This document shows, piece after piece, positions 15,250-45,016 of a stretch of 64,000 bases of DNA. Under the pieces are notes generated by a model. That model did not search any database. It worked only from the letters and a program-made list of their open reading frames with translations, and was not told the origin of the DNA. The DNA comes from a virus. The stretch's first letter is position 1; every line of letters begins with the position of its first letter. A program made the translations under genes and the position numbers. The stretch lies in IMG/VR virus record IMGVR_UViG_3300033183_000354, positions 32,001-96,000 of that record; one strand, written 5' to 3'.

Positions 15250-15617
15250 TTAAATCTCGAGCATATCATTGAAGATATTGCTGGTGCATTATTGTTTCTC
15301 AATTTAGAAGTAGAACAAATATATTCAGTTCTTTCTCTATCTTGTTCACGAATATACACATCAAATTTTACTCTTGACAAATATTCAAGCTTGAATAATT
15401 TAAATGATGATACGAATGGAATTGGATTCCATTCTTCATCAAATACAGCAATCTCATAATATTCAACATCTTCTCTTTTATTGAACATCTCCATTTCGGT
15501 TACCAATAAACCGTCATGAATAGATGTTTTCCACTTTGGATATGTCGGTGTCATCTCATGCGCATACGCAAAAAATGGCATTAACATAATGAGAAATGTT
15601 AAAATATAATTTCTCAT
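15246..15617 (-). CDS. Exported Ig-like protein, pilus chaperone-like
   Basis: Signal peptide ending AYA; HEMTPT...MFN...YYEIAV; Cys pair. Confidence 0.5.
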   Translation of the reverse strand: MRNYILTFLIMLMPFFAYAHEMTPTYPKWKTSIHDGLLVTEMEMFNKREDVEYYEIAVFDEEWNPIPFVSSFKLFKLEYLSRVKFDVYIREQDRERTEYICSTSKLRNNNAPAISSMICSRFK

Positions 15618-17535: not shown

Positions 17536-17616
17536 TAGTGTCAATTTTTTGACACTAACAATAATTTGTTATGTTCAATTGTCATAATATTGACCAATTA
17601 TATCAGTATTTATATG

Positions 17617-17652
17617 TTTACAAACACAGAAAACTGTAGTATAATATAAATA
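17617..17652 (+). promoter_or_regulatory. sigma70 promoter overlapping a late promoter, driving tmRNA
   Basis: TTTACA-N17-TATAAT plus TATAAATA at 17645-17652. Confidence 0.75.
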
Positions 17653-17654
17653 CA

Positions 17655-18045
17655 ATTGTAGTGATGAAGCAGACCGAAAGATAGACTGGACACGGGGGCA
17701 GTACCCGTCAGCTCCACCATAAACACACGGTGAATGACATGCGTATCAAATTAAATTCAGGCGATGAGTATGATGCACTCACAAAAGCCAAGAAATATTT
17801 TAAGTGGCGCGCAGGTCAACGCAAAAAGATCAAGCGAGGCTACAATAAAAGACTTCGCCGTGTGCTTATGATGGGGCTGAACTAGGATCGACAGGTATTG
17901 AATAGGGAAGTGGAGCTATCCCGCGCAAGCTGGGTTAACGCAAGAACTAAGTAACTGCAAACGATAACTTTGCACCTGTAGATTACGCTATCGCAGCATA
18001 ATCTAGCGGGCCAGTCCGGAGCCTAGGAACAGAATCCGGACACTT
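17655..18045 (+). ncRNA. ssrA: Circularly permuted two-piece tmRNA (outer ends approximate)
   Basis: Acceptor piece ends GACACGGGGGCAGTACCCGTCAGCTCCACCA (17719); coding piece starts GGGGCTGAACTAGGATCGAC (17873); tag ANDNFAPVDYAIAA* at 17957-18001. Confidence 0.93.
17739..17885 (+). CDS. Small Lys/Arg-rich protein encoded in tmRNA intervening segment (48 aa)
   Basis: MRIKLNSGDEYDALTKAKKYFKWRAGQRKKIKRGYNKRLRRVLMMGLN; GGTGA upstream; stop lies inside tmRNA coding piece. Confidence 0.65.
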   Translation: MRIKLNSGDEYDALTKAKKYFKWRAGQRKKIKRGYNKRLRRVLMMGLN

Positions 18046-18061
18046 AACTTGGAGATATATA

Positions 18062-18250
18062 ATGATAGCAGCAGTTTTATTTGCAATGTTGTTTGTTGCA
18101 GACAATAGAGAGTTTTTTGACACAGTTGAAGAGCAACAAAAACAAGGATATAAGTGGACGAAAGTTGGAAAGAGCCAACCGTCCGGAACACCAGCACTTG
18201 TAATGAAGAATACCAATGAAGAGTACATCTACTACAGATTGGAAAAGTAA
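18062..18250 (+). CDS. Small membrane/exported protein
   Basis: GGAG RBS, hydrophobic N-terminus. Confidence 0.65.
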   Translation: MIAAVLFAMLFVADNREFFDTVEEQQKQGYKWTKVGKSQPSGTPALVMKNTNEEYIYYRLEK

Positions 18251-18600
18251 TGAAAACGCTTTTATCAGCCCTCGTGCTGCTGGCCTTAGTTTCTACCACA
18301 GAAGCTAAGTGGTTTCAGAAACCCGTACAGTGTTCGACAGGAGAAGATGTCTATAGTACATTGATCGAACCATACGATTTACAGCCGATGTTTGCGGCTG
18401 TGGCAAGTATCGTTACACCGGATGCATCATCTCCGGCAGTATTAATCTTTTATATGAATATAGATACGGGAAGATTTCTTATTGTTGAAACTGACGATAT
18501 AAGTACATGTATTATTGGAATTGGTGATGGTGTTGATTTTAATATTACGCCAGAAGAGATGAGAAAATTTTTATTAAATGAAAACGACTCTCAGTTTTAG
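18250..18600 (+). CDS. Exported hypothetical protein
   Basis: Signal peptide, KPVQC...TCIIG. Confidence 0.7.
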   Translation: MKTLLSALVLLALVSTTEAKWFQKPVQCSTGEDVYSTLIEPYDLQPMFAAVASIVTPDASSPAVLIFYMNIDTGRFLIVETDDISTCIIGIGDGVDFNITPEEMRKFLLNENDSQF

Positions 18601-19096
18601 TGATAAGAAAAAGATAGTACAAAATAGAAAGTTATTGCCTTATAAATTCATTGGGAAAGTGTCTCAACAGTTTATTGAAGATTGTATTTCAGATTTAAAT
18701 CATTTAGAAGACACTACATTAAAATCAAAAAATAATAATATTGATTTCGGCGATTATTCTTTCTTAGACCATTATCATCAAAAGCATCTGAATAATATAG
18801 AATTGCCTAATATATTCAAATTATTTGGTGAAGTCTATGATTTAAGATATGGGATCCTAGACAAAGATCAATCAATTCCTCCTCATGTTGATAAGCCTGA
18901 TGGCCATCGATTCATGTGTATCATCAAAGGTAAGCATGAATATGTTACTCAAGTAGAAGAAATAAATAAAGTTGAAATGAATGAAGGTGAACTTTGGTTT
19001 ATTAATGCTAGTTTTAAGCATAAAGTAATAAACACTGGTCATCAAGATAGAATTGCTTTGTTAGGAAAATTTAATGACATCTCTCAATTATTATGA
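18578..19096 (+). CDS. 2OG-Fe(II) oxygenase (Asp/Asn beta-hydroxylase-like)
   Basis: IPPHVD...HKVIN.G...RIAL. Confidence 0.75.
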   Translation: MKTTLSFSDKKKIVQNRKLLPYKFIGKVSQQFIEDCISDLNHLEDTTLKSKNNNIDFGDYSFLDHYHQKHLNNIELPNIFKLFGEVYDLRYGILDKDQSIPPHVDKPDGHRFMCIIKGKHEYVTQVEEINKVEMNEGELWFINASFKHKVINTGHQDRIALLGKFNDISQLL

Positions 19097-44828: not shown

Positions 44829-45016
44829 TTAATGCATTATGGTGGAGAATAAGATTTGCTCTTGCAGTTTCTTGGATACTCCGTGAAAGTTGGTGGCCAC
44901 ATAAGAAATTATATTTGATATTTGGTTGGCAGATATCCGGATATATGTATTTAAAATCTGATGATGCACCATATCAATCAGCTCTTGATGAAATGACTAG
45001 ATGGTATACTGAATGA
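44825..45016 (+). CDS. Small hypothetical protein
   Basis: Coupled ATGA overlaps both sides. Confidence 0.55.
   Translation: MINALWWRIRFALAVSWILRESWWPHKKLYLIFGWQISGYMYLKSDDAPYQSALDEMTRWYTE

Follow-up and report, generated by a model that had tools for sequence, protein, structure and literature searches.

A small-protein gene nested in the spacer of a permuted tmRNA gene of a T4-like phage

The locus studied here raises the question of why an open reading frame (ORF) should nearly fill the segment between the two pieces of a permuted tmRNA gene, and how such a frame could be expressed given that the segment is removed on maturation. A preliminary description of the window, i.e., of the whole 64,000-nt stretch of DNA that was analysed, had proposed an ArfA-like feedback, in which the excised segment is a stop-less mRNA for a ribosome- or RNA-binding peptide that accumulates only when trans-translation is saturated. 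We arrive at a different reading and consider it likely that the ORF is a genuine small-protein gene, nested in the permuted-tmRNA spacer as in an exchangeable slot and translated from the nascent precursor.

The source record is a complete virus of 152,719 bp with terminal repeats, which is assigned to the T4-like phages by its gp23 match (E=1e-149). Within this marine phage DNA, the Rfam model RF04321 identifies a permuted (two-piece) tmRNA at 17658-18001 with 103.9 bits (cut-off 47), and a second model, RF01849, matches at 17613-18044 with 96.9 bits (cut-off 50). Both matches are full-length and place the acceptor piece upstream of the coding piece. The resulting order (acceptor piece, spacer, coding piece) is that of the permuted tmRNAs of Alphaproteobacteria and of aquatic T4-like phages such as Melnitz (RF01849/RF04321; PMC9004378), whose SsrA is also the nearest DNA match of the window tmRNA. 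Further features shared with known permuted tmRNAs are the tRNA-like domain, the G.U acceptor pair, the encoded CCA and the ANDN...AA tag. In the acceptor stem, GGGGCTG pairs with CAGCTCC, with G.U as the third pair, followed by the discriminator A and CCA; that is, the acceptor piece ends in ...CAGCTCCACCA. The tag frame begins with the resume codon GCA and ends with hydrophobic residues and a stop. All coordinates (Table 1) as well as Rfam agree with the two-piece tmRNA of the preliminary description, i.e., an acceptor CCA closing at 17719, a coding piece starting with GGGGCT at 17873 and a tag, and also its 153-nt spacer, nearly filled by a 48-codon ORF that stops inside the coding piece, is confirmed. 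By analogy with established tmRNA and tRNA processing, RNase P would cut at the 5' end of the coding piece (17872/17873). The motif TATAAATA is found upstream of the acceptor piece in related loci too.

Table 1. Features of the tmRNA locus (positions within the window)
Feature	Position	Strand	Basis
Predicted sigma-70-like promoter, TTTACA-17-TATAAT	17617-17645	+	consensus match alone (11/12 positions)
Predicted T4-late-type promoter, TATAAATA, overlapping the sigma-70-like promoter	17645-17652	+	consensus match alone
Acceptor piece: T-arm and acceptor 3' strand CAGCTCC-A-CCA	17658-17719	+	Rfam RF04321/RF01849 alignments, sequence
Closing helix, 5' strand CATAAACACACGG	17717-17729	+	sequence, fold
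Spacer (intervening segment), 153 nt, removed on maturation	17720-17872	+	sequence, Rfam
Shine-Dalgarno-like GGTGA, 6 nt upstream of the ATG, partly within the closing helix	17728-17732	+	sequence
48-codon ORF, small basic helical protein (phrog_16066 family, "Fam1")	17739-17885	+	ORF call, PHROG, dN/dS
Closing helix, 3' strand CCGTGTGCTTATG, also encoding the non-conserved C-terminal tail	17858-17870	+	sequence, fold
Coding piece, 5' end GGGGCTGAACTAGGATCGAC... (GGGGCTG)	17873-18044	+	RF01849 alignment to 18044
Tag frame, resume codon GCA to TAA, reading ANDNFAPVDYAIAA	17957-18001	+	sequence; RF04321 alignment ends at the tag stop

ARAGORN reports three tRNAs only and does not call the window tmRNA (17600-18060) despite Rfam scores above 95 bits. 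Long gene-bearing spacers probably cause a systematic under-calling of two-piece phage tmRNAs. With regard to the protein partner of tmRNA, a profile search for SmpB (PF01668) gave no match in the complete 152,719-bp genome, such that the absence of smpB noted earlier for the window extends to the whole phage; without a gene of its own, the phage would need the SmpB of its host for tmRNA activity. Downstream of the tmRNA, a 62-codon ORF with a GGAG Shine-Dalgarno (SD) sequence (18062-18250) starts 17 nt past the tmRNA 3' end and may be co-transcribed with it. A gene for an Asp/Asn beta-hydroxylase-like cupin lies at 18578-19096 (PF05118, E=4e-7).

The spacer is bounded by a closing helix of 13 bp with one A.C mismatch, which the preliminary description had reported and which is present both in the sequence and in the minimum free energy (MFE) fold of 17655-18045 (z = -4.2). 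A comparable helix is found in 68 of the 71 viral spacers of at least 40 nt, formed by 64 distinct sequences, and 3.4% of shuffles reach the same pairing. As judged from these comparisons, the closing helix is a conserved, covarying feature of the precursor. It also affects the start of the ORF: the mean unpaired probability from SD to AUG is 0.13, compared to 0.44 for the whole folded window spacer, with values of 0.20-0.47 in relatives. Since SD and AUG are masked by the folded helix, initiation would be favoured on the nascent transcript, i.e., before the 3' strand is made, while the spacer, once excised and refolded, is expected to serve poorly as a messenger.

The spacer ORF matches the PHROG profile phrog_16066 with its residues 8-43 on profile positions 9-44 of 53 and is the only copy of its family in the phage genome. 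Relatives occur on 295 viral and at least 429 metagenomic contigs. The homologous protein clusters share a conserved core of about 40-42 residues with nine invariant positions, followed by variable C-terminal tails. Pooling the best 80 of the 295 viral with the best 80 of the at least 429 metagenomic loci and discarding duplicates gave 123 distinct loci. At 94 of these, the gene is free-standing and has its own stop, often being translationally coupled to the next gene; mostly free-standing homologues were the very outcome that the preliminary description had named as speaking against its proposal. One free-standing copy lies within an integrase/ThyX/primase-helicase module and another one after a large terminase. 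Free-standing relatives also match phrog_16066, and an Rfam scan of eight free-standing loci detects no tmRNA at up to 3 kb from any of them. Copies embedded in permuted tmRNA spacers are found at 22 loci by motif criteria and at three more confirmed by Rfam.

In L344 (1-305), the same cassette, TAAACACAC-SD leader included, is flanked by two tRNA genes; the gene stops at its own TAA inside the helix 3' strand, and what follows (GATAGGAGGG) looks like a decayed tmRNA 5' end. In L325 (990-1247), an acceptor-like piece (..GCAGCTCCACCA TAAACACA..) precedes the gene, which has a non-helix tail and terminates at a TAA of its own; the contig breaks off 36 nt further on. This copy may be embedded and have its stop inside the spacer; two pattern scans gave no longer relatives of it. 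Among named phages, tblastn yields weak matches only, those in mycobacteriophages (E 0.1-1) not being trusted. In Puniceispirillum phage HMO-2011 (NC_021864 / GU557055), a stretch without annotated gene (15471-15560) shows 60% identity over 30 residues (E=0.1) and, by this similarity, may hold an unannotated free-standing homologue.

Is the window a singular case? For a census that is independent of any ORF, viral contigs were sampled by the 5' motif of the coding piece alone. Acceptor pieces were recognised by their pairing with the 7 nt that open the coding piece, which identified them for 128 of 135 viral motif hits, and an ORF was counted as spacer-filling if it has at least 30 codons and covers at least 70% of the spacer. 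The 108 tmRNAs of the viral contigs show a median spacer of 71 nt; 31 spacers measure at least 100 nt, and 23 carry a spacer-filling ORF, from 17 unrelated families. The same procedure applied to alphaproteobacterial genomes provides 105 tmRNAs with a median spacer of 30 nt, three spacers of at least 100 nt and a single spacer-filling ORF. By this comparison, phages specifically use the spacer as a slot for small genes. The sole cellular ORF stems from a metagenome-assembled genome labelled Vulcanimicrobiaceae (L260), where an apparent spacer of 392 nt holds a 75-codon membrane-like ORF; possible explanations are a prophage, misbinning of a viral contig or a wrong assignment of the acceptor piece.

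The genes in phage tmRNA spacers include those of membrane peptides and cysteine-rich proteins. A PHROG scan of ten other spacer ORFs returned no family, and we judged their reality from homologues in other loci. Five spacer genes have free-standing homologues beside the tmRNA genes of other phages; the spacer gene of L144, e.g., matches gp84 of Melnitz, which is located just upstream of the Melnitz tmRNA. Melnitz itself (Methylophilales phage Melnitz-1, MZ577095 ~44844-45008; L001 3102-3266) carries a 54-codon ORF within SsrA that is absent from its GenBank annotation. This ORF has a GGAGA SD, fills a spacer of 142 nt and reads 39 nt into the coding piece, i.e., belongs to a read-through family, and a diverged homologue occurs in L163. 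In the same locus, Rfam places a glutamine riboswitch after the tmRNA. The longest spacer seen (499 nt; L136, minus strand, ~2100-2600) holds two genes. The first is a 34-codon ORF that shares a KIPKYLSG motif with the Melnitz spacer gene, and the second encodes a membrane protein of 120 codons, the homologues of which usually lie just downstream of tmRNA genes (about 20 other loci).

Spacers and tmRNA pieces do not share one history. The spacers of L016 and L040 are 99% identical, while their acceptor and coding pieces show only 57-77% identity. Conversely, L329 and L330 show 97-98% identity in their tmRNA pieces but 84% in their spacers, which differ in leader and gene subtype. Such discordance is expected if spacers recombine as units, and the alignments show cassettes to have been exchanged between tmRNA genes.

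The position of the stop codon is central for the feedback that was proposed originally. Eleven of the 17 viral spacer-gene families stop inside the spacer and six read through. Among the former, six families use the TGA of ..TGAT/GGGG, one nucleotide before the cleavage site (slash), and five end 7-15 nt earlier. Whether a stop comes before or after the RNase P site is decided by the frame in which the gene enters the fixed helix and junction sequence. In the window, the first in-frame stop is the TAG at 17883-17885, 10 nt inside the coding piece, and none of the 25 complete embedded copies of its family stops before the GGGG of the coding piece, with stops falling 10 to 105 nt inside it. Thus, the earlier expectation that no stop precedes the RNase P site holds for all complete embedded copies of this family but not for most other spacer-gene families. 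Two junction frames are used. Subgroup A, including the window, reads ..CGT GTG CTT ATG ATG GGG.. and stops at a conserved UAG. Subgroup B reads ..TGT GCT TAT GAT GGG G.. (frame b) and continues for a variable distance, as does L329, whose protein shows 98% identity to that of the window over 40 residues. Given that the tail is read in two frames and at variable length, it is neither conserved nor selected.

Since the complete embedded copies lack an in-spacer stop, cleavage by RNase P would leave a stop-less message, and this part of the feedback proposal stands. The alternative that survives best builds on it, keeping the logic of ArfA without homology to it: RNase P makes a non-stop mRNA, the product of which is tagged and degraded, while untagged protein accumulates if processing or trans-translation is limiting. 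The absence of a stop before GGGG in 25 of 25 copies and in two junction frames fits this idea, as does the TGA within ..TTATGAT/GGGG, which six other spacer-gene families use and the window family never does. Unconserved tails past the cleavage site are what one expects if they are rarely translated. There is also a precedent, as PMC10107115 describes ArfA as an alternative rescue factor that is made from a non-stop mRNA and repressed by trans-translation. Nevertheless, stops within the spacer in 11 of 17 families imply that stoplessness is not a property of the slot; most members of the family are free-standing genes that end in normal stops and whose phages show no tmRNA close by; folding of the spacer buries its own SD and AUG; and the precursor provides a normal in-frame UAG at +10. 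Furthermore, only about three junction types are independent, which puts the chance of missing the stop-giving frame (c) every time at about (2/3)^3 = 0.3, for which reason we rejected the avoidance of frame c as evidence for selected stoplessness, although the stoplessness of all 25 copies could still stem from selection rather than from frame chance.

For frame-b relatives, the precursor is not a comfortable main template either, as ribosomes would need to travel 27-105 nt into the structured tmRNA, adding junk tails. Such tails are easier to tolerate if ribosomes rarely pass the junction. Together with the stop-less copies, this tolerance leads us to keep the ArfA-like regulatory logic as a live minority reading, which we rate as unlikely. 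Its generalisation seems quite improbable to us, namely that RNase P maturation turns read-through spacer genes into non-stop mRNAs whose output is gated by precursor processing versus trans-translation capacity, whatever the role of the protein. Translation of the nascent precursor is the reading that we prefer. As for the original feedback, free-standing homologues, in-spacer stops elsewhere and the masked start weigh against it.

A second alternative assigns the ribosome to the protein itself, i.e., the product would be a ribosome-rescue or ribosome-binding factor and a backup for trans-translation. The AlphaFold2 model (pLDDT 87) predicts two short helices (8-14 and 16-20) followed by a long basic one (27-47), and a small, very basic protein with a long basic C-terminal helix, encoded inside the tmRNA gene of a phage without smpB, would be compatible with such a role. 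The searches for relatives point elsewhere. No Pfam family matches the window protein at E up to 0.1, and for 43 aligned family members a loosened threshold of E = 10 gave seven weak, unrelated families but neither ArfA (PF03889) nor SmpB nor Ribosomal_S21. A profile search of PDB chains (cut-off E = 10), which include ribosome-rescue complexes, found influenza BM2 only (E=0.09) and no chain of ArfA, ArfB, SmpB or S21; we take the BM2 match as chance. An N-terminal resemblance to bS21 (PF01165) was considered and dropped, as PF01165 gave no match in the genome at E up to 1 and none among the 43 members. The rescue or ribosome-binding peptide of the preliminary description is therefore left without a match in Pfam and PDB profile searches to any of the factors that would back it. 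In addition, most homologues reside in replication or packaging modules of unrelated phages, and in other phages the same slot is occupied by membrane peptides and cysteine-rich proteins. We thus regard a rescue function of the protein as very improbable.

With regard to other functions, Foldseek with the predicted model gave no match in the PDB, and the ESM Atlas returned unnamed viral clusters only. The wide structural search by VIA reached a best Z of 4.1, a value of about 4 being below the trustworthy level for a 48-residue helical model, with sigma-factor region 4 and LuxR-type DNA-binding (helix-turn-helix) domains among its top rows. These fold matches are a weak lead towards DNA binding and, as far as they go, indicate helix-turn-helix domains instead of a rescue factor. 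The protein is probably a nucleic-acid binder unrelated to ribosome rescue.

That a protein is made at all is indicated by the substitution pattern. Between the window and subgroup A, about 10 synonymous differences face 4-6 non-synonymous ones, i.e., dN/dS is 0.07-0.10 (Nei-Gojobori, core), and between subgroups dN/dS is 0.05-0.2 by the same method. None of the 25 embedded copies has a frameshift or an internal stop, and the start codon and the position of the SD are kept in subgroup A relatives. The check suggested in the preliminary description, i.e., conservation of the ORF with dN/dS<1, thus came out in its favour (phrog_16066 at E=1.6e-7; 52 clusters of homologues at 90% identity in a large protein collection; dN/dS ~0.07-0.15). 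Read from these alignments, the spacer ORF is a real conserved gene under purifying selection. An untranslated ORF, conserved through spacer RNA structure or as the decaying remnant of an inserted gene, could draw on the spacer folding more stably than shuffles (z = -3.5) and on the window's GGTGA being a weaker SD than the GGAG of relatives, but is hardly tenable given the excess of synonymous differences, the intact start, SD position and frame of the embedded copies, and the conservation of the same protein in free-standing genes of quite different nucleotide context.

For a translated spacer gene, we propose the following order of events. The tmRNA promoters would drive one transcript, which serves first as messenger and afterwards as stable-RNA precursor. 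A ribosome would load on the GGTGA SD (9-13 nt past the acceptor CCA) immediately upon its transcription, translate the 42-residue core, pass the 3' strand of the closing helix and terminate at the UAG at +10 in the coding piece. Only after termination would the closing and acceptor helices form, such that RNase P and 3'-end trimming can release the two tmRNA pieces. The product of the gene, with three predicted helices of which the long C-terminal one is basic, is a member of a widespread phage family that is usually free-standing, and the spacer is an exchangeable slot in which related phages keep many unrelated small genes.

We compared the locus with known systems in which a reading frame meets RNA processing. 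The E. coli arfA mRNA is made non-stop by RNase III, which cuts a hairpin. As in arfA, a small basic protein is encoded by a reading frame that crosses an RNA-processing site in a hairpin, and cleavage would remove the stop. Unlike in arfA, the enzyme here would be RNase P acting on a tRNA-like substrate instead of RNase III, neither sequences nor profiles show any similarity, most family members are free-standing and carry normal stops, and neighbouring spacer genes often keep their stop. ORFs are also known from other stable-RNA genes: the S23p ORF sits in intervening sequences of 23S rRNA, and homing-endonuclease genes sit in group I introns of tmRNA (the latter: PMC11915505). The present ORF resembles both in being placed in a helix-closed segment that is excised from a stable-RNA precursor. 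It differs from the tmRNA group I introns, since no intron is involved and the tmRNA stays in two pieces, and from homing-endonuclease cargo, since spacers of the window type carry varied small phage genes and no mobility enzyme. In contrast to cellular permuted tmRNAs, which have a median spacer of 30 nt without genes, the 153-nt window spacer is nearly filled by a selected gene. Compared to other phrog_16066 members, the window gene has lost its own stop and takes its C-terminal tail from the closing helix and the coding piece.

From the intervening sequences of permuted tmRNAs, the 2025 tmRNA database paper (PMC11915505) mentions nothing beyond a tRNA gene or a repetitive element. The Melnitz paper (PMC9004378) does not mention a spacer ORF, although Melnitz carries one. 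In the papers that we could search, among them these two and the tmRNA-SmpB survey, we found no description of protein genes in permuted-tmRNA spacers.

The spacers of two-piece tmRNAs have been treated as disposable, while about one fifth of the phage spacers sampled here carry protein genes and cellular ones almost never do. The gene-in-spacer layout would explain why such loci are missed or mis-annotated by gene callers and ARAGORN, and it exposes a hotspot at which small phage genes recombine. A single, strongly promoted transcript would be messenger and stable-RNA precursor at once, such that translation has to compete with RNase P processing for the same RNA; loci of this type represent a compact system for the coupling of translation with RNA maturation. 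If the gating reading were true, the tmRNA gene itself would contain an ArfA-like feedback, independently of what the encoded protein does.
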